A stretch of DNA of 24,000 nt from an uncultured Bacteroidales bacterium (GTDB taxonomy: Bacteria; Bacteroidota; Bacteroidia; Bacteroidales; P3): the NCBI GenBank assembly GCA_900316055.1, contig ONBK01000009.1, positions 63,540 to 87,539 on the forward strand, read 5' to 3'. Under the pieces are notes generated by a model that worked only from the letters and a program-made list of their open reading frames with translations, did no database searches and was not told where the DNA came from. Shown here in pieces: positions 4,605 through 24,000 of this stretch. The position numbers were made by a program, and so were the translations under genes. The stretch's first letter is position 1. Each line of letters opens with the position of its first letter.

Positions 4605-4905
4605 GCCTTTAATAATACTGATTTTATTGTCAATAACGTCACATTTGCTGAATTATTGCGCATCGCAGAATCAAAAAAAATGCTCAGTCATATGTAACAT
4701 TTCGCCTCCCGTCCATACTATAAAAGCAGAAAAACACAAAAACCACAGTATATGATATACATCATTCAAAATCGCATGGTATGGATTCTCTACACCGAAA
4801 GAGACATCACTTCGCCTTGTCGACGCCTATACCTCCCCAGCATCCGCAATGAGCACAAATGGTCACCGATGGTAATACGATTGTAAATTCACAAAAAAGT
4901 AAAAC

Positions 4906-5223: not shown

Positions 5224-6782
5224 ATCTTGTCCTGACCATTCTTCCTGCCATACAAATAGCAGTGCTGGTGGTCGTCATAGTTGGTGATGCCCACACCGAT
5301 GCCATATTTCTCATACAGTCGGGCGAGTATTGCGCACACTGTCATCGCCTCCGAAACCTCATCCCTAATGGGGTCATACACCGAATCCTCCTGCGGAACG
5401 GGCTCATCCAACTCCAACTGTCCCACAGGATTCCACGTAGCCAGCGACACAATCTCATCGTACTGTTCACAAGTAATTTCTTCGTCCAATCCCAAGTAGC
5501 ACTCATACGGCAATGAGAACACACTGCCTTCCTCGTGATGGTTCAGGTAGTCGTGAAAGGTATGTGGCGTCAGCCTTACATAGTCCTTAGCCTCCAGAAT
5601 ATCAAGCATTTTCTGCGCATTGTGCAGTAGCAGCGGAGCCCCAGCTTCGTAGAGCGCCAGCGCGATCTCGCAACCCGCATCCACCCAAGCCGAGTAGCTT
5701 ACGCCAAAACTGATGAGCCAACCACCAGGGGTGTAATAATCCGTGGCATGCACGTCGTTCCGCGACAAACCCAGCTCACCATAGTGGTCGAACGCCATCT
5801 CCTTGAAAGCCTCCTCGCTATCGAAATCCGTCTCATCCGTGATCTCGCCACGGTTTCCCATCTGATATCGACGATAGAACCCGATGTCATCCAGTTTCGT
5901 TGACTCCTCAAGAAATTCAGCATATTCCAATCTTTCCCTCTTGTTTCGACGATACAAACGCTGGAAATGCGCTTCGTAGGCTTCATATGCCACTCTGAAG
6001 TACTTGGCATAAATCCGGATGCTCATTTTGGGAAGCGGTTCCCTATAACACGAAGGCAACTGACCTTCATCTTTCGATGTTTCCGGTCGTTCAAACTTGT
6101 CGCCAACCCATTTCGGCTCCGTCCTTCGGTAAACCTCCTCATTGGCGATACACTCCTTCAACATCTTGATCACCTTCTTCACATTCTTCGGCCTTCGCCT
6201 CTGCCACGGCACAATCCTATCCAGATCCTTTCTCGCTATCCGTCCCGTCCGCTGCCGTTTGGGCAGATGCTCATCCACATAGCGGTTATACGCCTCCACG
6301 TCAGCTGCAATCTCCGGCACCTTCTCTCGCAGAAACTCCGCCAGCGGTTCCAGCAGCCACTCCATATCCCGATGGTGCACATGCTTGTCGTCATCGTCGT
6401 GAATCTGGCACCACCAATGCACGTTCTCCACCATGTGCAGATAGGTATGTCCCCGGTATTGCGTCACCGCGATATGATACCATTGCGACTCCCTTGGGTA
6501 GTTCGACTTCCACTCCTTCAGATAGTCCGCCCGCGTATAGACCTCCTCCTCGGCCCAGTACTTCGCATCATTGAACGAGCACCAGTCCGAAGGCTTTCCC
6601 CTCGGCACCTCAATCCACAGCGAGTGCCGATAGTCGTCCCCCGAAGGCGCAAACACATCCAGCAGCCCTTTGATCTCCATCAGCAGCTCCAGCGACCTAC
6701 CACTCACGCAAATCCCGTTCAAATCATGATTCCCCGCATCCGCCCGCTCCATCAGCGGCACAGTCAATTTTCTCTTTGCCAT
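5124..6782 (-). CDS. Hypothetical protein, 552 aa, no recognisable domain
   Basis: Uninterrupted ATG ORF with a normal-looking, charged and aromatic-rich composition. Its 304-nt AT-rich upstream region suggests a monocistronic gene. I recognise no motif. Confidence 0.7.
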   Translation of the reverse strand: MAKRKLTVPLMERADAGNHDLNGICVSGRSLELLMEIKGLLDVFAPSGDDYRHSLWIEVPRGKPSDWCSFNDAKYWAEEEVYTRADYLKEWKSNYPRESQWYHIAVTQYRGHTYLHMVENVHWWCQIHDDDDKHVHHRDMEWLLEPLAEFLREKVPEIAADVEAYNRYVDEHLPKRQRTGRIARKDLDRIVPWQRRRPKNVKKVIKMLKECIANEEVYRRTEPKWVGDKFERPETSKDEGQLPSCYREPLPKMSIRIYAKYFRVAYEAYEAHFQRLYRRNKRERLEYAEFLEESTKLDDIGFYRRYQMGNRGEITDETDFDSEEAFKEMAFDHYGELGLSRNDVHATDYYTPGGWLISFGVSYSAWVDAGCEIALALYEAGAPLLLHNAQKMLDILEAKDYVRLTPHTFHDYLNHHEEGSVFSLPYECYLGLDEEITCEQYDEIVSLATWNPVGQLELDEPVPQEDSVYDPIRDEVSEAMTVCAILARLYEKYGIGVGITNYDDHQHCYLYGRKNGQDKIQINDKAFMSANEAMLKILRMFAEDLKENELII

Positions 6783-7052
6783 ACTATAATTCGTTTAATT
6801 GTTCACCCCTATAGTATGCTCCGGGACCAAAATGTTACATGCTCCCGTAAAATATTTTTGAAATATTTATTCCACCATTTACTCCACCATGAATTTCTGG
6901 CAGATTTCCAAATCCTCACATTTTTTCTTCTGCAATTATTCCAAAATCTCACAATTTATTTCTCAAAAACACCAAAACCGGAAATGTCACATGCGCCAGC
7001 AGAAATACAACGTTTTTGGCAAAAAACGCAAAAATTGCCAAAATCATTGTAC

Positions 7053-7084
7053 AAAAAAAGGCCAGCGCGTTGGTGCCAGCCTTT
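7053..7084 (-). terminator. Intrinsic terminator after the PIN-like gene
   Basis: The minus-strand RNA reads AAAGGCUGGCACCAACGCGCUGGCCUUUUUUU. It forms a 7-bp stem (GGCUGGC/GCUGGCC, two G:U pairs that exist only on this strand) followed by U7, 3 nt after the stop at 7087. Confidence 0.6.
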
Positions 7085-7086
7085 AT

Positions 7087-7614
7087 TCATATCTTCGTAC
7101 AGACATACGTGTCGAAGTTTACCAGAGGCGGGAAACTGCCCATACTTCGAACCTCCGAAATGAAAGCATTGGCCTCAGCCTTGGTCATCTTACCACGACG
7201 GATAGCATAGTACAGGAAGTCACAGGTGGTCAGGTAGGTAATACCCTTTTCCTCGCAGTAGGCCGTCACGTCCTTCGTGTTGCTGCTGCCCACCACATCG
7301 TGATGATAGAGGCAATACACCATACAGGCACTCTCTCCCCGTCCCAGTGCCGGTCCGTCCTTGGATATCAACCGCGCATACTCCTTCACCTCACCGGCGG
7401 TCTTTCCGAAAGTCTCCTCAGCAATCGTCTTCTCCTGCGATATTTCCTTCTGTAGCATCGACAGCAAAAGGGCCGGTATCTCCCACTTCACCACGTCCAG
7501 AACCATAAACTGGAACTCAGGCAGTATCAACGGCAGCTCATGCAACCTCCCGGCCTTGGCAAAATGGATGATGACATCCGCATCCAACACTATCTTAGTC
7601 TTCTTCACTGCCAT
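7087..7614 (-). CDS. PIN-like nuclease domain protein (DUF3368/VapC-like pattern)
   Basis: IVLDADVIIHFAKAGRLHELPLILPEF..VLDVVKWEI resembles the N-terminal PIN/DUF3368 block. Further acidic positions sit in GRGESACMVY and SSNTKD. It overlaps the ImmA gene by 20 nt. Confidence 0.5.
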   Translation of the reverse strand: MAVKKTKIVLDADVIIHFAKAGRLHELPLILPEFQFMVLDVVKWEIPALLLSMLQKEISQEKTIAEETFGKTAGEVKEYARLISKDGPALGRGESACMVYCLYHHDVVGSSNTKDVTAYCEEKGITYLTTCDFLYYAIRRGKMTKAEANAFISEVRSMGSFPPLVNFDTYVCTKI

Positions 7615-8299
7615 ACAGCATATTCATCAACTCGTTATAATGCCCCTCTGAAATCTTGCCTGTCTCAAACAGCGCACGCGCTTTTTCGCCAAAGTCACCT
7701 ATCACCAGCCCCTCGTTGCCAGGCTCATAGAGCGACATGTCGTAGCCGTATTCCCGTGCCGACTCTTTCACGCCAACTGCCTTCAAAGCCTCAAGCTGCT
7801 GCTGCGAAATCAGTCCGATGTCCTTCAACCGTATCAATAGCGTTATCCTCGACACCCCGAAATACTGCTCCAGCTTGAGCACCGTGGCCAGCGAAAGCTT
7901 GTGACCCATAATTTCCTCCTTGCTCACCATCGTCAGCACCCCCTCGCGAGGCATCAGCAGCGACGAGGCAAAACGGTTGGCGTTCTTTTCCTCGCCATCA
8001 ACACCGTCACCGCACATGTGAGGCATGGGCTTCTCGTCGAAATAAAGATGATACAGCTCGTGTGCAATGGTGAAATGCTGGCGGCCACGGGTAGAGTTGC
8101 TGTTGACCAGCATGAAACGCTTCTGGCCCGACATACAGCTGATACCGAACGAGTTTTCCGACAGCGGACGGTAAACCAGGGTCACGCCCAGCTTGCGGAT
8201 CAGCGTCTTGGCGTTGATGGGCTCAGCCAGGCCCAATCCCAAATCCGACCTGAACTTGGCGGCCAGTGAATCAGCTTCGATAATGGTTAGTGTCTTCAT
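7595..8299 (-). CDS. ImmA/IrrE family metallo-endopeptidase (COG2856)
   Basis: HExxH motif in FTIAHELYHLYFD, preceded by the typical RQHFTIAHE context. ATGA overlap with the upstream XRE gene at 8296-8299. Confidence 0.8.
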   Translation of the reverse strand: MKTLTIIEADSLAAKFRSDLGLGLAEPINAKTLIRKLGVTLVYRPLSENSFGISCMSGQKRFMLVNSNSTRGRQHFTIAHELYHLYFDEKPMPHMCGDGVDGEEKNANRFASSLLMPREGVLTMVSKEEIMGHKLSLATVLKLEQYFGVSRITLLIRLKDIGLISQQQLEALKAVGVKESAREYGYDMSLYEPGNEGLVIGDFGEKARALFETGKISEGHYNELMNMLYGSEED

Positions 8300-8637
8300 C
8301 GGCCAAGCAGTTTATCCATTTTCAACGAATTCTTCACGATGCGCTTGAAGGCAGCCAACTGCGCCATGTCCTCGGGCGAGAGCGCATCCACACGGAAAGC
8401 CGTCACCAGCATGCCTGCCAGAGCGGTCTCATCCTCGGTGTACAGATCAAGCAACTCGCAGCCGTAAAGGTCTGCCAACTTCTCCATCACTGCGAGCGGA
8501 ATCTCTCTATCCCCGGCCTCGTAGTTGGCGTAAGCCGACCTCCCGATGCCCAGGAAGCCTGCCACATCCTCCTGCGTGTAGCCGCTCACCTCCCGCATCC
8601 GCTTGATGTTATTCGCTACCAACATTCTCTTTTCCAT
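8296..8637 (-). CDS. XRE-family helix-turn-helix transcriptional regulator
   Basis: NIKRMREVSGYTQEDVAGFLGIGRSAYANYEAGDREIP is a canonical Cro/C1-type HTH. It is the first gene of a three-gene chain. Confidence 0.85.
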   Translation of the reverse strand: MEKRMLVANNIKRMREVSGYTQEDVAGFLGIGRSAYANYEAGDREIPLAVMEKLADLYGCELLDLYTEDETALAGMLVTAFRVDALSPEDMAQLAAFKRIVKNSLKMDKLLGR

Positions 8638-9600: not shown

Positions 9601-9767
9601 CAGTCACCGTCTCCGTCACCACCTCGTGTTCTGCCAGATTTTCGTTCAGATTCTGGGAGATTTGACCTTCGGTCTTCCTCCTCCTTGCAAGGCATAGCCC
9701 AAGCGAGCTTGGTCTCTGCTCTTGCTTCGTTCGTCGGTTCTTCGCGTAGCGAATCCCTTGTCTCCCC

Positions 9768-11239: not shown

Positions 11240-11470
11240 CTACTTGTATTGATTCTTCCTCTTATACCTCTCCTCTAACGCAAGAAGCTCATTGAACCAT
11301 TTTAGGCGTTGTTCTTCCAGCGCATTAGCGTTCATGAGCTTCTTTTGTTGCTTGACCCAATTTCTTAGTCCGCGTTCAGAATCAACGTATTTAGAAGGAT
11401 TCCGCTTATTGGCCTCAATAAACTTAATCACCTCATTATATCTTGTCAACCAACGAGTTTCTTGATCCAT
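11240..11470 (-). CDS. Helicase-associated (HA) domain mini-protein, 76 aa (copy 1)
   Basis: RWLTRYNEVIKFIEANKRNPSKYVDSERGLRNWVKQQKKL....L..QRLKWFNELL fits the single HA-domain pattern (W..y..l..F.......P.......L..W...Q.......L...R...f..L). It is a paralog of 22083-22316. Confidence 0.6.
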   Translation of the reverse strand: MDQETRWLTRYNEVIKFIEANKRNPSKYVDSERGLRNWVKQQKKLMNANALEEQRLKWFNELLALEERYKRKNQYK

Positions 11471-12289: not shown

Positions 12290-12310
12290 CCAACGCTCGT
12301 CTTGCGTCAT
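12290..12310 (-). pseudogene. 5' remnant of a third HA mini-gene
   Basis: The minus strand reads ATGACGCAAGACGAGCGTTGG (MTQDERW). It matches the first 21 nt of the HA gene at 22316 (ATGACGCAAGAAGAGCGGTGG) at 19/21 positions, then runs into the octamer array. Confidence 0.45.
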
Positions 12311-12337: not shown

Positions 12338-15300
12338 TCACGCATCAAGCCACTCCTCCTGAAGTGCATTCAAGTTCACTTCAAAAGGAAGGTGATGTCT
12401 GATAACAAACAATGTGTGGTTAGCTTGATTATCCTTCCCTTCATATTCGTCAATTATCTTCATGCCCTTACTCGCAAGGAACGAATAATTCACAAATTCT
12501 TCAGGTTTAGTAAGAATACGAGACCTCCAGAATGATGCTATAAACTCATTAATTACAGTTTTCACCTCACTGCCTATCACCTTAACCAAATCGCTTTCAA
12601 GTCTTACAATAACAGCCATGATATACTTGAATGCCTGATAAGAATCCACATTGATTGTTGTAATAAGGTAAGCGAATATGTATACTGGATAGTATCTATT
12701 CATATCCAGTTTATTTACCTCGTCAATATAAGTCTTATTATACTCTTTTCTTTCCAAAACGGCAATCACCTCTTTAACAACTTCGTCGTGTATGACAGGC
12801 TGATAACTGCGCAGAATGTCACGTATCTTTTCCAGCCCGCTTCTATCGCCTGTGATAGCCATCTTCAGAGCCAGGAAAAGCACCGGTGTCATCACATACT
12901 CAATAAATTCAGAGTCCGCACTCTCCCGTTTCATCTCTGGATGCGTCTCAAATGTCTTTGTCTGAGACAAAGTGGAAATGTCTGCTATCTGCGCCACCGC
13001 ATCAAAGTCCTGTTCTTTCAGGAACACAGGCACCAAAAGAGTCACAATAAAATGGATCTCCATTGTTTCACCCCGTCTTTTGATGGCTTCCAGCACTCTA
13101 TATGCCCAATCTGTTTTCATCTTTTCCATCTTTAATGCATCACATATCTGGTACATCAGGTAGCTAGATGTAAAGATTCTATCCTCTGAATAAAGATTAT
13201 CCAAGGCCTGCGCATCCTGTTCCGTAAACATGCCACGGTACGACTTCGCCTGCCCATCTGGAACCTCTCTCACACCTAATTCACCAAGATAGTTTACCAT
13301 CAACCAATCGCAAAGGCAAAGATATGTCTTGGCAAAGGGCGATTTCAATCCTTCTTCACTTGTCACATACTTGACACACTCAGAGATCACGTCAACTGAC
13401 CTAACTCTATCGCCAGCATCCCAATACATTAGTGATAATTCGCCCAAACATTGGTAATACTCATATATTGTACTTGAATGCCCGGGCTTTTGGACATAGT
13501 CAATAACCTTCTTCAACTGAGCGATACCTTCATTCATATCCGTCTCGCTCATCACATACGCCTTTATCTGGCCCAAATGAAGATGAATATTGGGTATCAC
13601 CTCACCATACTCTGCCGTCTGCAAGGCTTCGATATATGGCAATGTTTCTTTATTCTCTACTTCATTATTCGAATAGATTGAGTATGCCATCGAGCCATTT
13701 AACAGCACTTTCGCCAAAGGATATTTTTCAAACTGAATATAATAGTTGCCATAAACTCTTCTAGTATCCTCGTACCGTCCTGCTTTATTGAATGTCTCCA
13801 TCATCTCAAACAGGGCAGAGATCGCCATTTCCGGACATCTATACTCAATTGATTTATCCAATATATGCTGTAAACCCGCTATGATATCCCCCTGTTCCCA
13901 ACTTTTCCACTCTCTATTCACTAACTGGTATCCTGCCAAGTAGCAATGCTCACATATATCACTGTCCGAGTGGTTATACTCAAAAGGTTTAGCTGCAAAA
14001 TCTTTCAGCCAGGTCTCAAACTCTTCTATCTTTGTGAAGCGGAGTGGCAAAAACCAGATGCTCTTTTTGTACAGTTCATCCATCTCGTCCAGTTCATCCA
14101 CGCCCTTGCTATTCTTATTACGTTTTTCGATAGACAGGTTGTGATATTTCAAGCCAGCTTGAATTCTGTCCTCCGACCAACACAAAACGCTCAGCACACT
14201 ATAATAGGCAGCAGTCAGTTCACTTTCCGCCGCGCCCTCAATTATCCTGCAAAGATCATTCAGTATGTAATTTCTCTTGCTAGAAGACAGATTCTTCAGT
14301 ATCGTTAGTTGCTGAACTCTGACAGCAATCCGCAAATTCTCGGTCATCAGAATTGGCAGTTGGACATCCACCCACATAGAAGGAAGAATAGTCAGTTTGG
14401 GCAAATCTTCTTTCCTGATTTTCTCCAAAGCCCGCATATACATCAGTCCTGCTTCATCATACCGTTCTGCATTCTGCGCATAGAGTATGTAGTGAAGCAC
14501 ATCCAATTCATTAAGGGGCCCAGTCTTAATCATTATTCTGGATGCCAATAGCCAGTTACAACTCCTATAGCATTCATTATCCATATCAGGAGTCCATGCC
14601 TTATCATAAAGAGGTGTCACTTTATAGAGTCCGCTTTCTTCCGTCACCCACCCTGGTGTCAGAGACAGCAGCTTACTCCTTGGTTCCGCAATCTGCGGAC
14701 TGACCGAAGCCAAAGCCTTCACATCATCCTCTGAAAAGACTGTTTTCACCAGCATCAGACGGTTCAGCAGACTTCTGGTATCAGAATCAGGAATCATCCT
14801 TTGCATCAACTCTGCCAACGAGCGAGAGAGTTTATGATCAAAAGAATAGTTCAGCATCTGTCCAAACACCTTCTCATCCATCACCCAGTTACAGGAAGAA
14901 AGATATGTACATAGTGCTCTTGCCAATACTGGATGTCCGTAACTGTGTGCCCAAATAAACTTGCTGAAGTCTTGTCTTGGCGAATAGGTCTCTATCAGTT
15001 CCTTGGTTTCTACTTCTGTCAACAACGGGACTTCCACCTGTGCCACACGGCTCATATCCACCAAAGTCATATTCTCATCTATAGGAGCGTCTGTAGTGAC
15101 GACGGGCTTTTTTCCTTCTTGTAATTCTTGATAACAGAGCCGTATTACTTCATTGAGATGACCTGATGGCACATCCGTACAAACAAAACCATCTTTGACA
15201 TTGCTGAGCACCAGCTCTGACAAAGTTCGTTTCCCTGTTTTCACACTCCCGAACAACACAAGCACCTTTCCTTCGTTACAATGCTGAACACATTGCTGCA

Positions 15301-15898
15301 CCAGTGCTTCGCGTTTCACAATATGCAGATTATTCCTATCAGCATTCCGCAATACTGATAGCGAGGATGGAATGACCGACACCTGTTTCAATTCAGGTGA
15401 AGCCTGCACATTCTTGACAATTATGTCAAGTTTATCATTGATAGCGGTCAGGCTTTGTTTTGTTTCTTTTCTTGCACCTGACAGTTGTTCTAATATAGTT
15501 TTCTGGTCGTTCTCTATTTGCTTCAGACTGGCAGCTGACATTCTTAGCAGCTTGAATTGCGTCCAAACCTTCAGTCGAGTATCCTTGCAAACTTCTTCTT
15601 CAAACAGTTCTAGTAATTTCTTGTATTGTCCTTTCTGCGGGTCAAAATCCGGGGCCGCCTTAATTTCTTCTTTAAGTGCCTCCAGATAATGATCGTATTC
15701 CCTCCTTGCTTCGTTCCCTGCATATTCGGGGTCTGCATAAAACCTGCTGATAGCCCTCTCAAAAGCATTCCTATACCTTTTCTCCATCGACTTCTTGTCT
15801 GCAAGAAAAGACACGCTTTCCTTCCCCGACTCAAAAATTGCCGTGGCAATCAGGCTCTGAAGGACAGGTGCTAAAAACAATGAAATAGAGGCTATCAT
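12338..15898 (-). CDS. Large STAND-like NTPase, 1186 aa: N-terminal hydrophobic helix and coiled coil, degenerate P-loop, long helical-repeat C-terminus
   Basis: P-loop-like GSVKTGKRT (nt 15224-15250), hhhhD stretch PVVTTD, VEVPLLTEVETKELIETY, and a SYGHPVLARAL block resembling the GxP/GLPLA motif of STAND NTPases. About 800 aa of helical-repeat-like sequence follow. ATGA overlap with the upstream gene. Confidence 0.55.
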   Translation of the reverse strand: MIASISLFLAPVLQSLIATAIFESGKESVSFLADKKSMEKRYRNAFERAISRFYADPEYAGNEARREYDHYLEALKEEIKAAPDFDPQKGQYKKLLELFEEEVCKDTRLKVWTQFKLLRMSAASLKQIENDQKTILEQLSGARKETKQSLTAINDKLDIIVKNVQASPELKQVSVIPSSLSVLRNADRNNLHIVKREALVQQCVQHCNEGKVLVLFGSVKTGKRTLSELVLSNVKDGFVCTDVPSGHLNEVIRLCYQELQEGKKPVVTTDAPIDENMTLVDMSRVAQVEVPLLTEVETKELIETYSPRQDFSKFIWAHSYGHPVLARALCTYLSSCNWVMDEKVFGQMLNYSFDHKLSRSLAELMQRMIPDSDTRSLLNRLMLVKTVFSEDDVKALASVSPQIAEPRSKLLSLTPGWVTEESGLYKVTPLYDKAWTPDMDNECYRSCNWLLASRIMIKTGPLNELDVLHYILYAQNAERYDEAGLMYMRALEKIRKEDLPKLTILPSMWVDVQLPILMTENLRIAVRVQQLTILKNLSSSKRNYILNDLCRIIEGAAESELTAAYYSVLSVLCWSEDRIQAGLKYHNLSIEKRNKNSKGVDELDEMDELYKKSIWFLPLRFTKIEEFETWLKDFAAKPFEYNHSDSDICEHCYLAGYQLVNREWKSWEQGDIIAGLQHILDKSIEYRCPEMAISALFEMMETFNKAGRYEDTRRVYGNYYIQFEKYPLAKVLLNGSMAYSIYSNNEVENKETLPYIEALQTAEYGEVIPNIHLHLGQIKAYVMSETDMNEGIAQLKKVIDYVQKPGHSSTIYEYYQCLGELSLMYWDAGDRVRSVDVISECVKYVTSEEGLKSPFAKTYLCLCDWLMVNYLGELGVREVPDGQAKSYRGMFTEQDAQALDNLYSEDRIFTSSYLMYQICDALKMEKMKTDWAYRVLEAIKRRGETMEIHFIVTLLVPVFLKEQDFDAVAQIADISTLSQTKTFETHPEMKRESADSEFIEYVMTPVLFLALKMAITGDRSGLEKIRDILRSYQPVIHDEVVKEVIAVLERKEYNKTYIDEVNKLDMNRYYPVYIFAYLITTINVDSYQAFKYIMAVIVRLESDLVKVIGSEVKTVINEFIASFWRSRILTKPEEFVNYSFLASKGMKIIDEYEGKDNQANHTLFVIRHHLPFEVNLNALQEEWLDA

Positions 15899-17001
15899 GC
15901 GTATTTCTCCATCAACTGGTTTATATTGTACTGTGTCTCAACACTAGCTATATAATGAAAAAACAAAGGATTATTGTCAAGTGACCTTTTCAGCACTTTG
16001 TTCAGAAGTCTATAACGTTGCATTTGCTGTTTATCGAATTTTTCTATGTCAGCAACAATCTCATTTAATGTCCTGTCTACAAAGATGAAATATTTTCTCA
16101 ATATTGAGACCACATAATCACATACTTGAATCATTGGGTTGGTTGCAGAATCAGAAAAACTATAGTTATTAAGCTTCGTACCATTTACTTCAATTGTGTC
16201 TTCCGTCAACAGTTTTTCGACCTGTTTCTCAGTATCAAAAACCAAAGTCCTATTTGGATAAGAATATATTTCAGCAGAGTAGAATTGTACAAACATTTTC
16301 ACCCATTCATCTGGGGTCTCATCCTGTATGAATGTGAGTTCATCTTTCTTCTTTGCTTCATTAATCTTCTTCACCAGAATACTCGCCATCATTTTATCGG
16401 GTGGATTTGGCACTGTTCCAATGAACTTTAAAACCTTTGCTTCCAAACCGTCTAAAAACACTATTTTATCTTTGTCTTTAATATCAGGATAGTGATACTT
16501 CCCAAACAGTTTAACGGTTTCCTCTGGTGATGACTTCAATATTCTGTAAAGAATCGCTTTTAGATTATGCGCCAACATAACATCATCACAGATGGAATCT
16601 ATCACATCCACGAAGGCATAATACCACACCTGAACCATGATGAAATGCACATTCCACCTCTTGCTTTCAACCAAGTCAAACGTCCTCTGAAAGGCATCCT
16701 TACGCAGAATTTCTACAAAAGAGCCTCTCAAATCTTTCGTTGATTTCAGTTCTCGTCCCGGCTCTTTACCTAATGCAGCATGAAGTTCATCATCCGAAAT
16801 AATATCCTCTGTCTGTACACCACCCAAAACAAAACAGGCATTTTCTGAGGCATTTACACGCTTTTCTGGCAATAGCACTAAATGCTTCACGTTGTCCGTC
16901 TCATCGTAATACCAAGTTTCCCTTTTATCGTATTGTTCTTCTGATACTCCCTGAGCCAAGGCCATCAGCCTGTTCAATTGATATACTCTGCTGTAATCCA
17001 T
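15895..17001 (-). CDS. DUF3800-like protein, 368 aa
   Basis: N-terminal WYYDETDN and C-terminal FSDSATNPMIQVCDYVVSIL correspond to the two conserved DUF3800 blocks (DE.. near the N terminus, DS....iQ.aD near the C terminus). Confidence 0.45.
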   Translation of the reverse strand: MDYSRVYQLNRLMALAQGVSEEQYDKRETWYYDETDNVKHLVLLPEKRVNASENACFVLGGVQTEDIISDDELHAALGKEPGRELKSTKDLRGSFVEILRKDAFQRTFDLVESKRWNVHFIMVQVWYYAFVDVIDSICDDVMLAHNLKAILYRILKSSPEETVKLFGKYHYPDIKDKDKIVFLDGLEAKVLKFIGTVPNPPDKMMASILVKKINEAKKKDELTFIQDETPDEWVKMFVQFYSAEIYSYPNRTLVFDTEKQVEKLLTEDTIEVNGTKLNNYSFSDSATNPMIQVCDYVVSILRKYFIFVDRTLNEIVADIEKFDKQQMQRYRLLNKVLKRSLDNNPLFFHYIASVETQYNINQLMEKYA

Positions 17002-17016
17002 TTCCTTCCAATCCTT

Positions 17017-18048
17017 TTATTCCACATACCAATCCGGCTTCACCCATTCAGGGAACAATCTCTGCCTCGTTTCCCTTAGTTTTGCCAAATAAAAATCATA
17101 GAAATCCCTATAGAAATTGAAGGGTTTTAGAGCCATGTCTTCTGCGATAGAATAACCTCCATACACCATGAGCCATAATCTCAGTGCGCTACCAACATAA
17201 CCCCACAACACATCTATCTCCGGGACGTCCATTCGCTTCATCAGCAAATCAATTCTGATATCCATATGTGGATGACTACCTCCACCACTAACACTGTCTG
17301 GCCCCATGAAAAGCAAGGCACACAACAGGTTGGCAATGCCAACTTTGTTTGTATAGCCATCATCTGCGCCAAACGTCTCAGCCAACCAATCAAAAGCCAA
17401 CTCATCAGCAGCTATTTCATCCTTTACCATTTGATTTGCGTTGCTAACAGTTTGTGTATGTCCTAAATAACTATGAGCCAGTTCGTGTGCAAAAATGAAA
17501 CCCACCCCACTTATCATCAATGCATTTGCCTTTCCAATTTCATCTCTAAAAGCCTGCGGGTCACATATATTGGGTATTTCAAAGAATATTTCCTTTCTCC
17601 ATTGTGTTTCCAGAAGTCTTCTCGCCCTGAAAAAAGAATCGCCTGCAAATTCTACTGCAGCCATGTTTGCTTTATAGCCATGAATATTACACCCCATTGC
17701 ATTCATCATCGGTATTTGAACCACATTGTCGAATACCGTACTGATGTAAAGACCGACGGCCCATAGAAACTGACAGAAAGTCAACGAAATGTTGATTTCA
17801 TACTTCCCATTTTTCTCTATGATTTCTCCAGGTGTCAGACAACCGTTATTCTCTTCCAAAAACAGGATATTCTTTGAAAGGTCATTTGTGTTTACCTCTG
17901 TATTTGCAGCCTCCCAAACGCCTTCAATATTTAGGACATGTTGAATACTCAAATCACGCAAAGCCTGTACTGGCAAATACAAACCAGAGTAGTCAAACAA
18001 TGATTGTTCTATAGGATACGCCATACCATCATCGCTTAATAAGGACAT
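17017..18048 (-). CDS. HExxH zinc-metallopeptidase-like protein, 343 aa
   Basis: A single FIFAHELAHSYLGH motif (nt 17458-17487). The rest is unrecognised and the family is not assignable by eye. Confidence 0.5.
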   Translation of the reverse strand: MSLLSDDGMAYPIEQSLFDYSGLYLPVQALRDLSIQHVLNIEGVWEAANTEVNTNDLSKNILFLEENNGCLTPGEIIEKNGKYEINISLTFCQFLWAVGLYISTVFDNVVQIPMMNAMGCNIHGYKANMAAVEFAGDSFFRARRLLETQWRKEIFFEIPNICDPQAFRDEIGKANALMISGVGFIFAHELAHSYLGHTQTVSNANQMVKDEIAADELAFDWLAETFGADDGYTNKVGIANLLCALLFMGPDSVSGGGSHPHMDIRIDLLMKRMDVPEIDVLWGYVGSALRLWLMVYGGYSIAEDMALKPFNFYRDFYDFYLAKLRETRQRLFPEWVKPDWYVE

Positions 18049-18164
18049 TCCATTCTGCCTGTACGACTTATACTAAAACTAGCATCAAGGTTGAAACAAC
18101 CATTCACCATGAACCCTGAACCAAAAGTGTTCTGTGCTATCTGTGTGACCTTGAGCCATGCCAT
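18036..18164 (-). CDS. Unlisted 42-aa micro-ORF (MAWLKVTQIAQNTFGSGFMVNGCFNLDASFSISRTGRMECPY)
   Basis: Hand-translated. Its ATG overlaps the upstream TAA as TAATG at 18164. Its TAA (18036-18038) lies 13 nt inside the peptidase-like gene. It fills the only apparent gap in the gene chain exactly. Confidence 0.3.
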   Translation of the reverse strand: MAWLKVTQIAQNTFGSGFMVNGCFNLDASFSISRTGRMECPY

Positions 18165-18661
18165 TACTTCAACTTCGTATTAACCCTTATACCCTTTTTG
18201 GTCTCTGAATATGACGATATATAATCTCGTGCCTTTAACACCCTCGCCAATCTCCAGGACTCTTCATTATTTGGGATTTCCGGTTTCTTTCCCTTCTCTG
18301 CAATATACTTGTAGGGGAAAGGCAACGTCTCTATGAAAGCGGAAATGACGTCTTCATCAAACACATTCTTCTCCAATGTATAATTCAGCACCCTCATCCT
18401 TTCGCCTGACATTTTTGTTAGTTTCATCACTTTCAGCAGGAAGTCCTTGTTAAGAATTACCTCTTGCCTATCGAGAAGATGAATAATCTCGTCAGACAAC
18501 TCTTCATTCAAAATAGCCACATCAAAATATGGGATAAGATTTGTCTTCTCAACAATCGTAAGGTTTGATCTCATAAGACCCACAGCAGTTTCAGTACTAT
18601 ACGCTACATCCTCTGGGGTTTTCAGCCATTCCCGTTTATGTTTAAGCAGGTACGCTATCAA
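18164..18661 (-). CDS. Hypothetical protein, up to 165 aa (TTG start; first in-frame ATG gives 136 aa)
   Basis: The ORF is open only from a TTG at 18661, with an in-frame TGA 14 codons upstream. The first ATG is at codon 30 (nt 18574). No motif recognised. Confidence 0.45.
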   Translation of the reverse strand: MIAYLLKHKREWLKTPEDVAYSTETAVGLMRSNLTIVEKTNLIPYFDVAILNEELSDEIIHLLDRQEVILNKDFLLKVMKLTKMSGERMRVLNYTLEKNVFDEDVISAFIETLPFPYKYIAEKGKKPEIPNNEESWRLARVLKARDYISSYSETKKGIRVNTKLK

Positions 18662-18721
18662 TGCAGACGAAGAATAACGGCTTAATATTCCACTGATTGA
18701 TCAATTCCATTCTTCTTCAAT

Positions 18722-18748
18722 AAAAAATAGAGAGTCCAACAGACCTCT
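18722..18748 (-). terminator. Intrinsic terminator closing the drt3 transcript / candidate ncRNA
   Basis: The minus RNA reads AGAGGUC-UGUUG-GACUCUCU: 7 bp with one bulged U, followed by AUUUUUUA. Confidence 0.5.
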
Positions 18749-18938
18749 GGGGGTCATTAGTGTGTGGAGCGAACTCCTCGGATTGGTTTTGCAACTGCCG
18801 TAGCATGGAAGGCTTTCTTGCGCCTCAACGCAATAGGCCTCCGGTGCAGCCCCAGCCCGTATATTCCTCTGCCTCTTCCGTCATGAGTGGAATTGACTTC
18901 GGACTGTCTCTTCGGGTCTGCCGGGCTCTCTAAGGGTC
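18749..18938 (-). ncRNA. Candidate DRT3-associated structured ncRNA
   Basis: A ~190-nt ORF-free stretch, GC-richer than its surroundings, between the drt3b stop and a terminator. It contains AGGC-CUA-UUGCG-UUGAGG-CGCAA-GAAA-GCCU (18810-18840) and GGAG-UUCG-CUCC (18766-18777), directly followed by CACACAC (18766-18760). Confidence 0.45.
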
Positions 18939-20876
18939 TTATTCGTAAGGTGAATGATATTCTTTCTTTTCCAAATACTCTGTCAAGTCGTGGTTCTTGT
19001 CCCAGTCAAAGAACCATCGTTTAGGCTTGGACAATTCTGCACGCTTAGCCCCGGACTTATCCCGTTTAACGTCCAAGCAGTTCGCTATAATTGTCAAACA
19101 GGTATTCTTTGTCACGTATGGACATGTCATCACATCAAAGAACAAGCAGGCATTGTCTGCTTTGCGAAGACGCTTGGGTTCCGACAAGCGCGACATCAGC
19201 TCCGTTTCTACACCACTAAGTACAGCAGAATACTCCGCATCATTCTCAATGAGATATAGTAGCGTACATAACTGGAAATAGTTCAATCGCTCGTATCCCG
19301 TGCCGTCCGCTATCTTCAGTCCAAACAACGAGTCAATTTGTCTGACTGGTATATTGAATCCAATAAGCCTGTGCAAAGTGATGAGCAGGTTGAGCACTTC
19401 CAAATTAGTATTCTCAACTGCAAGGTCTGCCTGATAAATGTCTATCACGCGCTTTGCCTCACGACGTATTCTTGCCGTAAGTTCTATCTTGGTTTCTGGT
19501 TCAACTGCCATGTCCGACCAACGTACAAGACAATCCAGAATAGAGCACAAACGGTATGAAGCCGTGGTGTGCATATCCAGAGAGAAAAGGAAGAACGCAA
19601 TGTCTGCATAACCTGTCAGCAGGTTCTGACTGGGTATCATCTCCTTCTTCATTTCCCGTCTTATCTGGTTCAGCAAGAGTGTAAGCGTATATTTGTTCAA
19701 GTCGCCATAATGTTGCTGGAACTGATGGGTAATAGAGCGGAAATGCTTCACAAAAGAGGTAAAGAGGCTATAATCGCTCCGTATGGCTGTGGCATAGTGT
19801 TTTTTCTCTCCTTCGCCCTCTTTTCTCTTCAGGTGCTTCTCCTTAAACTCCGCCACCATCTTGTTCACCTGCCGCTTGGCATCGCTCACACCAGAAGTAA
19901 ATGGACGGTCAAAATATTCGCGCTTTTTCTCATTGATATCCAGCTTATAGAAAGCAAGCTGTTCTTTGTAGGCAGCACAAATGTCATCCAATACTTTGCG
20001 AGAGTTGGCATAGATGTATGAATCGTCCACATAGCGACGTATCTCATAGTCACGACCAAGGGAGTAACCCATCTCTTTCAATTGACGCAGAATGGCTAGG
20101 TCAACGGCTTGAAGGATAATCTCTGCAAAGATACGTGAGATTTCCGGTCCTACAACAATGCCATTTGTCTCGTTGTAGTTGGCGTGCTGCATTAACTGGT
20201 CAAAATTCTTTTCGAAGGTGTCTGCATTGATATTATCCTTAGCGATTTCTTTTCCTTTCACTGCCCAAGCAACTGTATGGGTATAAATGTGATAGAAACA
20301 GCCTGTGATGTCAAGAGTCATCATATGACTGAACTTTTGCTCCAATCGCAGGTTATCGCCGCTTTCGAAGAACTTATACGCCAAGTCATATTTCTTATAA
20401 CTGAAATAGGAACGGTAGCGTTTCTCTATCGCGTTATTATCCAATTCTATCACCTGACCTGCTGCTTCTTCAGGTAACGCTTCGTTATCATCTTCAGCAT
20501 CTTCCTCTGGTGGAAATACACACTTTGCCTTCTTGCTGATATAGCGTATAGAGAATGGGCTGTGCGAACAGAGGTTGAGCATATACTCATCGTATTTCTC
20601 ATAGTGGTCTACACAGTCCAACTGGGTAAGTGGATGTACTAAACTAAGTTTACGGCTCTTCTCACCACCAACCCTACGGACATTATAGTCAAAAGGAATT
20701 GTCCAATCTCTTCTATTCACGCATTTACCGAAAACACTGACAAACAGATTTCTAATGATATCATCCTGCATATTCTCATAGAATGCCTCGTTGTTGAGTA
20801 TAAGAGGCAATTCATATGGGAGTACTTCTGTCAGCAGCACCCGGTATTTATTATTCAAATCGTTCGCCTGTTTCAT
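18939..20876 (-). CDS. drt3b: Antiviral reverse transcriptase Drt3b (UG8-type)
   Basis: RT motifs LDITGCFYHI, NGIVVGPEISRIFAEIIL, RRYVDDSYIYA (YVDD at nt 20022-20033) and LDINEKK, plus a long C-terminal helical extension. The listed start at 20885 is TTG. The ATG at 20876 forms an ATGA overlap with the drt3a stop. Confidence 0.75.
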   Translation of the reverse strand: MKQANDLNNKYRVLLTEVLPYELPLILNNEAFYENMQDDIIRNLFVSVFGKCVNRRDWTIPFDYNVRRVGGEKSRKLSLVHPLTQLDCVDHYEKYDEYMLNLCSHSPFSIRYISKKAKCVFPPEEDAEDDNEALPEEAAGQVIELDNNAIEKRYRSYFSYKKYDLAYKFFESGDNLRLEQKFSHMMTLDITGCFYHIYTHTVAWAVKGKEIAKDNINADTFEKNFDQLMQHANYNETNGIVVGPEISRIFAEIILQAVDLAILRQLKEMGYSLGRDYEIRRYVDDSYIYANSRKVLDDICAAYKEQLAFYKLDINEKKREYFDRPFTSGVSDAKRQVNKMVAEFKEKHLKRKEGEGEKKHYATAIRSDYSLFTSFVKHFRSITHQFQQHYGDLNKYTLTLLLNQIRREMKKEMIPSQNLLTGYADIAFFLFSLDMHTTASYRLCSILDCLVRWSDMAVEPETKIELTARIRREAKRVIDIYQADLAVENTNLEVLNLLITLHRLIGFNIPVRQIDSLFGLKIADGTGYERLNYFQLCTLLYLIENDAEYSAVLSGVETELMSRLSEPKRLRKADNACLFFDVMTCPYVTKNTCLTIIANCLDVKRDKSGAKRAELSKPKRWFFDWDKNHDLTEYLEKKEYHSPYE

Positions 20877-22054
20877 CTCCAGCAATTTGCAATCTTCGCC
20901 ATTTGGTCGGTGGTGAAGTGATGATTTACATGATGGTAATAGCCAAAGTCGAAAGAGTATTTCTCCAAATCCTTCACTTGTGGCTTTGTAAGTGCGATTG
21001 CCCCGCCCAATCTACCTGTACGGCAATGCAGCAAACGTTGATAGTAAGCATCAATATCTTTCAATGCTCTGACATCATTGGCCATCTTATAGTTGAAGTA
21101 GATACCCACTTTAATAGGCAGGAGTGTATGCGGGTTATAAAGTGTGAAATTACCCGTCAGGAATTTGATACGCAGTTTCAGAAGGTCAAAGTTGTGATCT
21201 TTGGAGTAGCGTACAAATGTCCTTGTCAGACGGGTCTTGATAACTTTCAGTTTATTTTGAGCTATGGTCACGCTTAAGCGGTTCCCAATCTTCTTGAAGG
21301 TATAACCTAGGTATGTGAACTCTGCACCTGGCAGGCTTGGGTCAAGGCTGTATGACTTTTCTTTATTCAACTGCAAACCTATCTTATTCAGTTCCTCGCC
21401 AGCATATTTCCACGCAAGTACCTTGCTTGCCTCACTGCTACAAAAGACAATAATATCATCCACAAATCGGGCATAGTAATAAACACCCTCAATCTTCTTG
21501 AAGTCCAGGTCAAAATACTTCATATATAGCTCTGACAGCACAGCACTGATGCCTAGGCCACGGGGAAGACCTGTTCCTGCAACAATAGCGGGGTCATTGA
21601 AAAGGGACTGCAAAAGCATTAGTGAGTGGTAGCTCAGTCGGGTATCGTCTACCAACTTCGTCAGAATACGCTGACGGTCTATGGACTCATAGAAGTGACG
21701 TACATCTAAGCGTACTATCCGCATCTCTACATTTTCCGCAAGCAGCAGTTTCATCTGCTTTACAATGGTATTGCGGTCTGCCTGTTGCACTGCATATATG
21801 CGCTTGATGTTCTTGTGCAGTTTGCGAAGAACAAGGTTTTGGCAGAGATATGCCATGGTTCTTTTGCCTTGACCGTTAAGATACAAATCCCAGTATTGCT
21901 TAATCTGGAAACGATATGTACCAGCAACTATGGTATTCCCCAATTCTGCCCCAATAGCTTCAATTAGCTCCTCTTTCTGCAAGCCAGAGTTGCGCCGTTC
22001 TGCCTGAGTGGTACAACGGTACAGTTCTGTTGGAGTAAATGATTGGGTATACAT
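20873..22054 (-). CDS. drt3a: Antiviral reverse transcriptase Drt3a (UG3-type)
   Basis: RT motifs RLDVRHFYESID, GLPRGLGISAVLSELYM, YARFVDDIIVF (FVDD at nt 21455-21466), GLQLNKEKS and FTYLGYTF. A ~390-aa RT directly followed by a ~645-aa second RT is the DRT type 3 architecture. Confidence 0.75.
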   Translation of the reverse strand: MYTQSFTPTELYRCTTQAERRNSGLQKEELIEAIGAELGNTIVAGTYRFQIKQYWDLYLNGQGKRTMAYLCQNLVLRKLHKNIKRIYAVQQADRNTIVKQMKLLLAENVEMRIVRLDVRHFYESIDRQRILTKLVDDTRLSYHSLMLLQSLFNDPAIVAGTGLPRGLGISAVLSELYMKYFDLDFKKIEGVYYYARFVDDIIVFCSSEASKVLAWKYAGEELNKIGLQLNKEKSYSLDPSLPGAEFTYLGYTFKKIGNRLSVTIAQNKLKVIKTRLTRTFVRYSKDHNFDLLKLRIKFLTGNFTLYNPHTLLPIKVGIYFNYKMANDVRALKDIDAYYQRLLHCRTGRLGGAIALTKPQVKDLEKYSFDFGYYHHVNHHFTTDQMAKIANCWR

Positions 22055-22082
22055 ATTCTTTATTATTAAAATACTTTCAATT

Positions 22083-22316
22083 CTACTTGTATTGGTTTTT
22101 ATGCTTGTACTGTTCGATTTGTTCTATTAATCTCTTAAACGATTCTATACGCTCAGACTTCAATCGCCCGGCAGTATACAACTTTCTATTATGCTTAAGC
22201 CAGTTGAAGAAACGGCCCCTTTCTTCATCATTATGTTTAGACGGATTCCGCTTGTTAGTCTCTATGAAGTTCTTCACCTCATTATATTTCTCTAGCCACC
22301 GCTCTTCTTGCGTCAT
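22083..22316 (-). CDS. Helicase-associated (HA) domain mini-protein, 77 aa (copy 2)
   Basis: ERWLEKYNEVKNFIETNKRNPSKHNDEERGRFFNWLKHNRKLYTAGRLKSERIESFKRLIE. Both intact copies end in KNQYK. It lies 28 nt upstream of drt3a. Confidence 0.6.
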   Translation of the reverse strand: MTQEERWLEKYNEVKNFIETNKRNPSKHNDEERGRFFNWLKHNRKLYTAGRLKSERIESFKRLIEQIEQYKHKNQYK

Positions 22317-22341
22317 ACCCGAAACTCTTAACTCTGAACTA
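22317..22341. repeat. Short word array (CTCTTAAC TCTGAAC TATCAAC TCTTA) filling the RAYT / HA spacer
   Basis: Read directly. It uses the same word family as 9393-9421. Confidence 0.6.
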
Positions 22342-23154
22342 TCAACTCTTATTTACGGTATTGTCGCCAGCCTCCCTCACCCGCCTATACGACCATCCTG
22401 TGTGGCTCATCACCTGACGGATAGAGGCGCCTTCCGCTTTCGTGTCCAGTACGATTCGCGTCTGTTCCTCCATTGTCAGCCGCTGGAACTCAGCCACGCT
22501 CTTCGCACCACACTGCTCAATGATGAAGTCCCGCACTTCCGAGTCCTGCAGGCGCCTCGTATTGTCCACGTCCACACAATTCGCATCGCACGGCTCGTTC
22601 ACCAGTGCCCTCAAGTCCTCCAGCGAAATGCGCTTCAGCACCGCCCGAACATGGCTAATGGGCCAGCCCAACTCATCCGGTTCACGCAGGTAATCCTGAT
22701 TCCAACTGCTCCACTCGTAGTCAGCCGCATCCTCCACGATTCCTGCCTTCACAGGATTCTGGTGGATATAGCGTAGCAGCGTCGTGAAGTAATCCATATC
22801 GTTACACGGCTCGCTCTTAAAACGCTCCTGAAACAGATGCCCGATGCGCTCGTTCTTCTTGTTGTAGTAGTACACATAGCTGCTCGCCAGACTCTTGATT
22901 ACCTCCGCAATCTTCCAGTCCTTCTCCATCACCAGCAGGTGGAAGTGGTTCATCATAAGACACCATGCGTAAATCACACAAGTACGTATGGGCAGCAGCC
23001 TCCCGTCATCATCATGCTGGAACGGCAAGTCCGCAAGAATATCCATAAACCGCCGGCAATCCTCATCATCGTCGAAGATAGCCTGACGATTTATCCCTCG
23101 CATCATCACATGATAGATGCCACAGCCGCTTTCCTTTCTGGCACTCCGAGGCAT
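22342..23154 (-). CDS. REP-associated tyrosine transposase-like (IS200/Y1 HUH family) protein with a C-terminal HTH-like extension
   Basis: HUH motif in MMNHFHLLV (nt 22939-22947) and a catalytic-Tyr context in LLRYIHQNPVKAG. The N-terminal GIYHVMMRGINRQAIF is typical of this family. Confidence 0.7.
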   Translation of the reverse strand: MPRSARKESGCGIYHVMMRGINRQAIFDDDEDCRRFMDILADLPFQHDDDGRLLPIRTCVIYAWCLMMNHFHLLVMEKDWKIAEVIKSLASSYVYYYNKKNERIGHLFQERFKSEPCNDMDYFTTLLRYIHQNPVKAGIVEDAADYEWSSWNQDYLREPDELGWPISHVRAVLKRISLEDLRALVNEPCDANCVDVDNTRRLQDSEVRDFIIEQCGAKSVAEFQRLTMEEQTRIVLDTKAEGASIRQVMSHTGWSYRRVREAGDNTVNKS

Positions 23155-23166
23155 GATATGACAATC

Positions 23167-24000
23167 TCAATCTTCGTTATTCTCCTCTTCCGGCAGCGCC
23201 TGTACATCCCCTGCTGGTGGCAAGTAGTCCGCCGCCTTGGCAGGAGAAATCACCGAGTGACCAAGTTGCGATTCCAATTTGTCACGAGCGGCCTTAGCCA
23301 CACTGCCACCTTTCTTGGCCACTTTCACACTCTGTTTATAACCCTGAGGGTTCTGCTCTTTTGACAAGTCAGTAGCGGCACTCTCTGCCAACATGTTGAG
23401 GATAAGCTCCGTATTGGTCATATTGTCGCGCAGGCTCTCTTTCTTCAGTCCCTTGAACTGTTTGTATTGCCTAGTCGTTTTACCACTCCACTCGCGTGTA
23501 ATAATATCGGTAAGTGACGCATATTGCTGTCCCTGTTGCACGCCAGCGCGGTCCCACTCGTCGGTGAGGGCCTTGCGCACCTCGATGCTCTTCACCCGAT
23601 TGTTGATCCAACTTTCAGAATACCCCTTGCGGCGCCAGTCTTGTATGGCCTGATCAACCGCCAGCTCCGGGTCGGCCAACTGGTCCAGCCGTTCCTTGGC
23701 CACTTGCGCCATCCACTGCTTGAAGGGCTCTGCCTTCTTTGAAGGAATGCTCTGAATGAGGCGGAAGAGTTGCTCGGTGCTGGCCACATCGGTGAGGCGC
23801 ATCTTGCCGTCGGGAGCAAGCATCTTCAAAGCGTTACAATTTGTAACGGTTTCGTTCCCCTCTTTCTTTAAACGGTTCTTAAGGACACGCCAATAGGTCT
23901 GAGGGTTCTCACTCTCAGAGAGCACCGCACACACGTCCACGATGGAGAAGTACCACTCCTCCCGTTCGTCGTCCCATGCAGTCCGCACCTTCTTGTCCTC
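23167..24000 (-). CDS. Bro-N domain / DinD-like protein (5' end outside the window)
   Basis: VRTAWDDEREEWYFSIVDVCAVLSE...YWRVLKNRLKKEG fits the Bro-N pattern, and the remainder resembles DNA-damage-inducible DinD-type proteins. The listed start is GTG, and the frame stays open to nt 24000. Confidence 0.6.
   Translation of the reverse strand, partial: EDKKVRTAWDDEREEWYFSIVDVCAVLSESENPQTYWRVLKNRLKKEGNETVTNCNALKMLAPDGKMRLTDVASTEQLFRLIQSIPSKKAEPFKQWMAQVAKERLDQLADPELAVDQAIQDWRRKGYSESWINNRVKSIEVRKALTDEWDRAGVQQGQQYASLTDIITREWSGKTTRQYKQFKGLKKESLRDNMTNTELILNMLAESAATDLSKEQNPQGYKQSVKVAKKGGSVAKAARDKLESQLGHSVISPAKAADYLPPAGDVQALPEEENNED

Follow-up and report, generated by a model that had tools for sequence, protein, structure and literature searches.

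The window, i.e., the whole 24,000-nucleotide (nt) stretch of DNA analysed here, comes from an uncultured gut Bacteroidales bacterium. Positions 18722-22054 on its minus strand (window numbering is used throughout) very probably constitute an intact and self-contained anti-phage module of the defence-associated reverse transcriptase (DRT) type 3, composed of two overlapping reverse transcriptase (RT) genes, drt3a and drt3b, and a noncoding RNA (ncRNA) encoded directly after them. The combination of a UG3 RT of ~400 amino acids (aa), a UG8 RT of ~650 aa and an ncRNA reportedly makes up the DRT type 3 anti-phage system (Gao et al. 2020). DRT3 is among the most unusual polymerase systems known in that amino acids specify one product strand. 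The call itself is correct but ordinary; it brings no new principle and would not surprise a specialist. RefSeq already labels drt3b on a plasmid of Bacteroides finegoldii, and the NCBI pipeline names such genes.

Classification of the two reverse transcriptases

The gene pair has the following features:

20873..22054, minus strand: drt3a, UG3-class (Class 2) RT, 393 aa, catalytic FVDD at 21455-21466
18939..20876, minus strand: drt3b, UG8-class (Class 1) RT, 645 aa from the ATG at 20876, YVDD at 20022-20033
20873..20876, minus strand: ATGA, shared by the drt3a stop and the drt3b start, read from the sequence

An earlier reading of the DNA letters without database searches (the sequence-only reading) described two adjacent minus-strand RT genes and named them a UG3 plus UG8 pair, i.e., DRT type 3. 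All of its coordinates are correct, with FVDD translated from 21455-21466 and YVDD from 20022-20033, and the class assignment is borne out by the family models that it proposed to search. The PADLOC hidden Markov model for Drt3a matches the first RT over its full length (residues 1-393; E-value 2.4e-112, 374 bits), the next-best PADLOC class being UG17 (5e-37, 126 bits), while the Drt3b model matches the second RT, also over its full length (1.2e-176, 587 bits), followed by Drt6 (9e-43, 145 bits). Given E-values of this size, the RT pair is no chance pattern. The NCBIfam equivalog models agree, with 363.5 bits for NF041747 (Drt3a; cut-off 200) and 598.2 bits for NF041748 (Drt3b; cut-off 350). 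Among solved structures, which for DRT3 are PDB entries 26cz and 9z6y/9z6z, the best match of Drt3a is the Drt3a chain 9z6y_A (2.6e-37) and those of Drt3b are the Escherichia (E.) coli Drt3b 26cz_A (2.6e-85) and 9z6y_H (1.9e-75). Alignment to the experimentally tested E. coli proteins, the second check proposed, runs from end to end at 32% identity for Drt3a and 30% for Drt3b.

Weaker PADLOC matches (first RT: RT_UG17, 5e-37; second RT: Drt6, Drt4 and AbiP2, 1e-43 to 1e-34), together with the generic RVT_1 domain that Pfam recognises in both proteins, could suggest RTs of other classes (retron, group II intron, diversity-generating retroelement, DRT10/UG17 or AbiK/DRT4-like) that lie side by side by chance. 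The Drt3a and Drt3b models outscore the other classes by 250-440 bits at full length, however, and the NCBIfam models for group II introns, retrons, Drt2, Drt4 and Drt5 all fall far under their cut-offs for both RTs, such that the probability of this explanation is vanishingly small. By model scores, neither RT groups with retrons, group II introns, diversity-generating retroelements or other UG classes, the outcome that the sequence-only reading had named as contrary to its proposal. A group II intron RT was rejected on 75 and 38 bits for TIGR04416 (cut-off 300) and on an Rfam scan of the whole window, in which no family, group II introns included, reached the gathering score. Retron models gave at most 46 bits, and no inverted repeats were found in 17000-23500; a diversity-generating retroelement was rejected because no direct repeat longer than 32 nt surrounds the genes and the RTs classify as UG3 and UG8. 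Neither repeats of the template/variable (TR/VR) type nor those of the retron type are present around the RT genes. Among related loci, collected via Drt3b alignment (17 from species-representative genomes, 51 from metagenomes, and more by exact look-ups), drt3a lies directly 5' of drt3b on the same strand in every one with enough upstream DNA.

Catalytic and priming residues

The mechanism of DRT3 is now known in detail from papers published in 2026. In E. coli (EcoDRT3, ECOR12), Drt3a copies the sequence 5'-ACACAC-3' of an ncRNA encoded just 3' of drt3b, in which stem-loop (SL) 4 adjoins the template, and thereby produces poly(dT-dG) (Wang et al. 2026 bioRxiv, PMC13174585). Drt3b uses no nucleic-acid template; it primes on its own Y666, and residues E22 and R241, helped by R71, direct the alternating addition of dA and dC to yield poly(dC-dA) (PMC13174585). 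The two strands anneal to double-stranded DNA, which is restrained by RecBCD, and the lambda protein Gam triggers growth arrest; both RT active sites are needed for defence (PMC13174585). A complex of Drt3a, Drt3b and ncRNA with 6:6:6 stoichiometry was reported by Deng et al. 2026, as summarised in a review (PMC13314766).

In the alignment of the two Drt3b proteins, E22, R75, R248, YVDD and Y644 of the window correspond to E22, R71, R241, YVDD and Y666 of E. coli, respectively. Numbered from the ATG, the catalytic motif is Y282-V-D-D, and Y644 is the penultimate residue. Judged from this alignment, every residue shown to be necessary in E. coli Drt3b is retained, and all of them (E22, R75, R248, YVDD and Y644) are invariant in alignment A1, which spans 61-92% identity. 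Both RTs carry a YxDD-type motif, FVDD in Drt3a and YVDD in Drt3b; Drt3a has FVDD rather than YVDD in 53 of 67 homologues.

Gene junction and selection

The listed open reading frame (ORF) for drt3b extends over 18939-20885 and counts 648 aa from a TTG at 20885, nine bases upstream of the ATG at 20876. At the junction the letters are TGG AGA TGA AAC, where the ATG (20876-20874) overlaps the drt3a stop codon TGA (20875-20873). Because the ATGA overlap is conserved in ~55 related Bacteroidales-clade loci (counted by script), the start is placed at the ATG, giving a 645-aa Drt3b; the sequence-only reading had made the overlap conditional on this start instead of the TTG. The overlap likely couples the translation of drt3a and drt3b. 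Ratios of nonsynonymous to synonymous substitution (dN/dS) against relatives are 0.05-0.06 for drt3a and 0.03-0.06 for drt3b, i.e., both genes are under purifying selection.

The noncoding RNA

Between the stop of drt3b (18939) and the next listed minus-strand ORF (18661) there are ~277 nt without a long minus-strand ORF, and these include a T-run at 18727-18722. Where the sequence-only reading saw a noncoding stretch and a terminator, the stretch is assigned as the DRT3 ncRNA, with a structure predicted from sequence and covariation, and its closing helix and U-tract account for the "terminator". The predicted elements are:

18722..18932, minus strand: DRT3 ncRNA, 211 nt; helix P1 encloses a junction, SL2, a multibranch P3 domain, SL4 and the template
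18915..18932, minus strand: P1 5' strand (UAGAGAG.CCGGCAGACC), from covariation
18901..18916, minus strand: single-stranded junction block CCCGAAGAGACAGUCC, invariant or nearly invariant columns in alignment A2
18766..18777, minus strand: SL4 hairpin (GGAG-UUCG-CUCC), adjacent to the template on its 5' side and predicted to mark its boundary
18760..18765, minus strand: 5'-ACACAC-3', predicted template for poly(dT-dG) synthesis by Drt3a, invariant in A2
18728..18745, minus strand: P1 3' strand (GGUCUGUUGG.ACUCUCUA), from subclade folds and covariation
18722..18727, minus strand: U-tract after P1, from the sequence, with the T-run conserved in A2; probable transcript end of operon and ncRNA

The predicted template is found 62-240 nt past the drt3b stop in all 66 loci for which both the C-terminal end of drt3b and DNA beyond it are available. 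ACACAC by itself is not enriched in the window (11 matches vs 9 expected), and only its conserved position, rather than its count, is informative. In A2 it is fixed within the invariant block ACACACUA.UG. A hairpin ends at most 2 nt from ACACAC in 37 of 40 distinct ncRNAs from all clades, compared to 41% of shuffled sequences.

The minimum free energy of the ncRNA region corresponds to a z-score of -3.2. When four subclades were folded separately with RNAalifold, every fold had a long helix closing the RNA and a hairpin next to ACACAC, while the inner helices varied between the four folds and were less consistently predicted. In the window's own subclade the predicted architecture consists of a 17-base-pair (bp) P1, the junction CCCGAAGAGACAGUCC, hairpin SL2, a conserved GAAUAUACGG, the branched P3 domain, a 4-bp SL4 abutting ACACAC, 14 unpaired bases, the P1 3' strand and the U-tract. 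A MAFFT alignment of all 48 ncRNAs submitted to RNAalifold recovered the structure only in part because the variable helices misalign, and it was replaced by the subclade folds and by realignment to a covariance model.

The covariance model built from the window's subclade, R1, covers model positions 1-211 in the window (248 bits, E-value 7e-84) without a second site. Each of 54 Bacteroidales-clade loci holds a single full-length R1 match, which invariably lies immediately 3' of drt3b. In the R1-based alignment, which is fitted to the model and in which pairing counts are therefore biased toward structure, 88.3% of cells are paired, a value that none of 500 column shuffles attains (66.1%); when partners are slid as a control, the share is 39-48%. 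In 56 of the 58 pairs both partners have changed. All 17 pairs of P1 (helix 1) display compensatory changes (86% paired); SL4 (helix 12) is 99.5% paired, with swaps from A-U to G-C in 15 sequences. The overall fold is credible because the separate subclade folds agree on P1 and the template-adjacent hairpin, and because the margin is large. The ncRNA is also far more conserved than the neighbouring synonymous sites: it is 90% identical between the window and either of two related loci (L018 and L021), where 61-73% of the synonymous sites of the adjacent genes differ.

Promoter and terminator scans of the window gave counts at chance level; the terminator scan missed P1 and the U-tract, since a large loop lies within the stem. 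The DNA upstream of drt3a and that upstream of the ncRNA share a 23-nt similarity, which was put down to chance because it does not fit the Bacteroides promoter consensus.

Comparison with the E. coli system

The 161-nt E. coli ncRNA was taken from Table S3 of PMC13174585, and its locus (L074) from an E. coli genome collection; a search of plasmids and phages with an E. coli Drt3b fragment did not return the exact locus. The order drt3a, drt3b, ncRNA on one strand, the pairing of UG3 with UG8, a YxDD motif in both RTs and a stem-loop 5' of the template are the same in the window and in E. coli, and E22, R71, R241 and the penultimate tyrosine of E. coli Drt3b all have counterparts in the window. 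The E. coli ncRNA also folds with a closing helix, and its ACACACUAUU is unpaired just 5' of the 3' strand of that helix. In both ncRNAs ACACAC is followed by UAWUG, single-stranded, just before the 3' strand of the closing helix, and CCUGAAGCAGAUACC and GAUAUUCGCG of E. coli resemble CCCGAAGAGACAGUCC and GAAUAUACGG of the window. Common to the two RNAs are thus ACACACUAWUG, CCYGAAG..AGA and the topology.

In other respects the two loci differ. The genes overlap by ATGA in the window, whereas a 3-nt spacer (TGAttcATG) separates them in E. coli, and the Drt3a motif is FVDD rather than YVDD. The ncRNA of the window is longer (211 vs 161 nt) and has extra helices; its closing helix is directly followed by the U-tract and doubles as terminator, while E. 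coli has a separate terminator hairpin, and SL4 abuts the template instead of being connected to it by a 6-7 nt linker. The setting is a chromosomal Bacteroidales defence island in the window and a P4-like satellite in E. coli. These differences leave the kind of system unchanged.

A broader covariance model, R2, reaches loci with 37-44% Drt3b identity (L063, L064 and L069). With default filters it does not reach the E. coli locus or the loci from Cytophagia, Flavobacteriia and Proteobacteria, and with filters off it returns only terminator-like hairpins in which the whole interior is deleted. R1 and a profile searched with nhmmer likewise did not reach the E. coli locus; the relatives reached by the models and the profile go down to ~37% Drt3b identity. 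With ~50 well-aligned, strongly covarying sequences, the Bacteroidales form adds a second ncRNA family for use in structural comparison.

In E. coli (NZ_CP019271.1 719622-728782), the reference DRT3 lies between the integrase and the psu/delta genes of the P4-like satellite. The ncRNA (4501-4661 of that locus) is unannotated in RefSeq, and the ncRNA of E. coli DRT3 is carried by just 13 of 5426 complete E. coli genomes.

Proposed mechanism

For the locus in the window, the DNA made, the protection against phages, and the nuclease and trigger that would act in Bacteroidales are deduced from the homologous E. coli system. Translation of the operon transcript would give Drt3a and, coupled through the ATGA overlap, Drt3b, and the transcript's 3' end would fold into the 211-nt ncRNA. 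Drt3a would bind this RNA and repeatedly copy ACACAC, bounded on its 5' side by SL4, to form poly(dT-dG). Drt3b, without a nucleic-acid template, would prime on Y644 and, with E22 and R248 enforcing the alternation of dA and dC, form poly(dC-dA), and the two strands may then anneal to a poly(GT/AC) duplex. In E. coli, RecBCD holds this duplex at a low level, and inhibition of that nuclease by a phage (lambda Gam) leads to accumulation of the duplex, growth arrest and abortive infection. In a large gut-Bacteroidales clade, ACACAC and its boundary hairpin in the RNA, as well as the priming tyrosine and both gating residues of Drt3b, are unchanged although the proteins share just 30% identity with those of E. 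coli and the RNA scaffold is rebuilt. This conservation of template and residues supports the generality of the poly(GT/AC) product.

Several points weigh against assigning the locus as an intact DRT3 module that works in this way. Identity to the tested E. coli proteins is only 30-32%. The Bacteroidales ncRNA has no homology to the E. coli ncRNA that is detectable with the covariance models or the nhmmer profile, and it is therefore assigned to the system by its position, its template, the hairpin at the template boundary and its topology; the pairing counts carry the bias mentioned above. No recognisable promoter is found in the 28 nt upstream of drt3a, where sigma-70 scans are at chance level. 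Finally, RecBCD as regulator may be replaced by another nuclease in a Bacteroidales host.

Related reverse transcriptase systems

Like Drt3a, the RTs of DRT10 (UG17) and DRT9 (UG28) are Class 2 UG RTs that reuse a short template in a structured ncRNA, and UG17 is the second-best class of the window's Drt3a. DRT9 and DRT10 make tandem-repeat or homopolymer DNA with a single RT, their templates and products differing from those of DRT3; DRT10 reportedly adds an SLATT effector protein, and neither system is known to have a protein-templating partner RT. Drt3b shares its architecture, an RT-like domain with alpha-repeats, and tyrosine priming with the Class 1 UG/Abi RTs AbiK, DRT4 and DRT6, and its weaker matches include PDB 7r08 and UG15 entries as well as the PADLOC models Drt6, Drt4, AbiP2 and AbiK. 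These enzymes act alone and produce untemplated, random or homopolymeric single-stranded DNA, whereas Drt3b makes a defined dinucleotide repeat and always occurs with Drt3a.

The HA mini-gene upstream of drt3a

A small gene precedes the module:

22083-22316, minus strand: HA-domain ORF, 77 aa (Pfam HA, 31.5 bits; cut-off 28.4)

It ends 28 nt before the drt3a ATG. The sequence-only reading gave the same gap and placed the gene outside the DRT3 system, a view that agrees with the lack of HA upstream of drt3a in most relatives. Since the two genes are on the same strand and no terminator-like site lies between them, HA could alternatively be a working fourth part at this locus, e.g., a small DNA-binding regulator that is co-transcribed with drt3a. 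A nearly identical metagenome contig (L076) has the same arrangement, HA lies directly upstream of drt3a also in L025, L034 and L046, and DNA homology among relatives begins just ~10-18 nt before drt3a, leaving the module without a conserved promoter of its own. The window and these four loci are, however, the only ones with HA in this position. Most relatives lack it, including those at 85% identity, which have leucine-rich repeat (LRR) or glycosyltransferase genes there; in L018-20, L024 and L028 HA is found downstream of DRT3; elsewhere it adjoins unrelated defence genes (TIR, AbiEii, Septu, helicases); and a second HA copy in the window (11243-11470, minus strand), 55% identical to the first, has no DRT3 beside it. 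A role of HA as a fourth component is accordingly improbable, and the preferred description remains a module of two RT genes and an ncRNA. HA may nonetheless share a transcript with drt3a in this lineage.

The HA family comprises at least 1158 clusters, almost without exception 77 aa in length. In the contexts examined, HA is always on the same strand within defence arrays that contain ThsB/TIR, AbiEii, Septu, AAA_15/21, DEAD helicase or GmrSD genes, and it recurs in Bacteroidales defence islands, where it looks like a "punctuation" gene. HA genes might encode small regulators or mark cassette boundaries, and in this way promote the expression or exchange of whichever defence module comes next, which is DRT3 here and a TIR, AbiE, Septu or helicase system elsewhere. 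A bolder combined reading, in which HA mini-genes are a functional repeated element of defence islands and DRT3 expression here is HA-dependent, with the milder addition that the DRT3 ncRNA scaffold is replaceable, is unlikely. The replaceable scaffold would be suggested by a Bacteroidales ncRNA that lacks detectable E. coli homology while ACACAC and the boundary hairpin stay fixed.

A possible 7-codon HA remnant is present at 12290-12310, and HA arrays in Bacteroidales/Prevotella loci (L076, L077-L088) are often found beside capsule loci.

Module boundaries and host

Similarity to relatives at the DNA level begins at 22054-22072, ~10-18 nt before drt3a, and ends at 18717-18738. These limits agree with the span given by the sequence-only reading. 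With homology confined to the stretch from just before drt3a to the U-tract, the module of 3.3 kb forms a self-contained unit. Its flanks differ even between 85%-identical copies, with LRR and peptidase genes in one and glycosyltransferases in another. The nearest DRT3 relatives are found in Bacteroidales, Prevotella and Segatella, and the 90% cluster of the adenylate kinase encoded at 1676-2323 contains a protein from a "Bacteroidales bacterium" metagenome-assembled genome (MAG); the description of the locus as a Bacteroidota-context copy thus holds. Viral contigs gave only one distant relative, so this DRT3 clade is not typically phage-borne.

Between 23901 and 18674 the window and contig L076 share 98.6-99.5% identity; at 18674 the two diverge, within the first dozen codons of a 402-aa gene. 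This position, 48 nt past the ncRNA, is a recombination breakpoint. Such rearrangement, which in the window has cut the 402-aa gene of a 99%-identical contig, and the disruption of drt3b by an insertion in one relative (L006) would fit a DRT3 copy that has decayed or lost its activity in an island undergoing recombination. Both ORFs are nevertheless full length with all key residues present, the ncRNA is complete over model positions 1-211, dN/dS is 0.03-0.06 and an independent metagenome encodes both proteins at 99.7% identity, which together make decay highly improbable and an intact module the better description.

The 402-aa gene (L076 5245-6453; L018 8180-9385) has a weak DUF5677 match and no PADLOC match. 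It is located 3' of the ncRNA in nine loci (L076, L018-20, L024, L025, L028, L029 and L066), represented by six distinct sequences. The window retains its first ~12 codons, which are followed by an unrelated ORF at 18164-18661 (p165; no family match) and a Lit-like peptidase gene; p165 was considered as a remnant of the 402-aa gene and rejected, as it shows no similarity.

The surrounding defence island

The window is a defence island. In addition to HA and DRT3, its genes are a Bro-N/PDC-S13 gene, an IS200-like Y1 transposase gene, the Lit-like peptidase gene, a PDC-S51/DUF3800 gene with a partner of 1186 aa, a DUF4143 fragment, a helix-turn-helix (HTH) and M78 peptidase pair, and two DUF488 genes with DuOB.

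The 343-aa protein encoded at 17017-18048 (minus strand) is weakly Lit-like (PADLOC 3.5e-14; NCBIfam 54.9 bits vs a cut-off of 274; Peptidase_U49 below cut-off) and, from these matches, a putative distant Lit-like metallopeptidase in Bacteroidales. At 12338-17001 (minus strand) the DUF3800 protein (PDC-S51, 5e-91) overlaps by 4 nt the downstream 1186-aa ORF, for which no match was found in Pfam, PADLOC or NCBIfam; the pair is likely a two-gene candidate defence system. The region 5124-8637 (minus strand) encodes an HTH_3 protein (8296-8637) and an M78/IrrE-type peptidase (7595-8299, capP-like, 2e-22), followed by ORFs of 175 aa (weak PDC-S70, 3.6e-4) and 552 aa, neither of which has a confident family match. 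This layout resembles a CapH/CapP-type regulator pair ahead of a candidate effector. Two tandem DUF488 genes (one PDC-M45B, 1e-47) and a DuOB-domain gene at 2516-4604 (minus strand) lie directly after the adenylate kinase and an ABC-2 permease and mark the edge of the defence island.

Small mobile elements are also seen. A ~78-nt hairpin element (AGAACCGACG.ACGAAGCAAG.GCAGAG...GCCTTGCAAG.AGGAGGAAGAC) is found in the window (9672-9741), in L076 (1142-1219) and in Segatella albensis (L003 1103-1168). In L076 it splits the IS200-like Y1 transposase gene, whereas the window's copy of that gene (22342-23154) is intact and lacks it. The element is similar to repetitive extragenic palindromes (REP) or miniature inverted-repeat transposable elements (MITE) and may be mobilised by the Y1 transposase. 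In L006 (6540-7195), from a Paludibacteraceae MAG, the insertion that breaks drt3b is ~650 nt long and has 33-nt terminal inverted repeats and the remnant of a DDE transposase.

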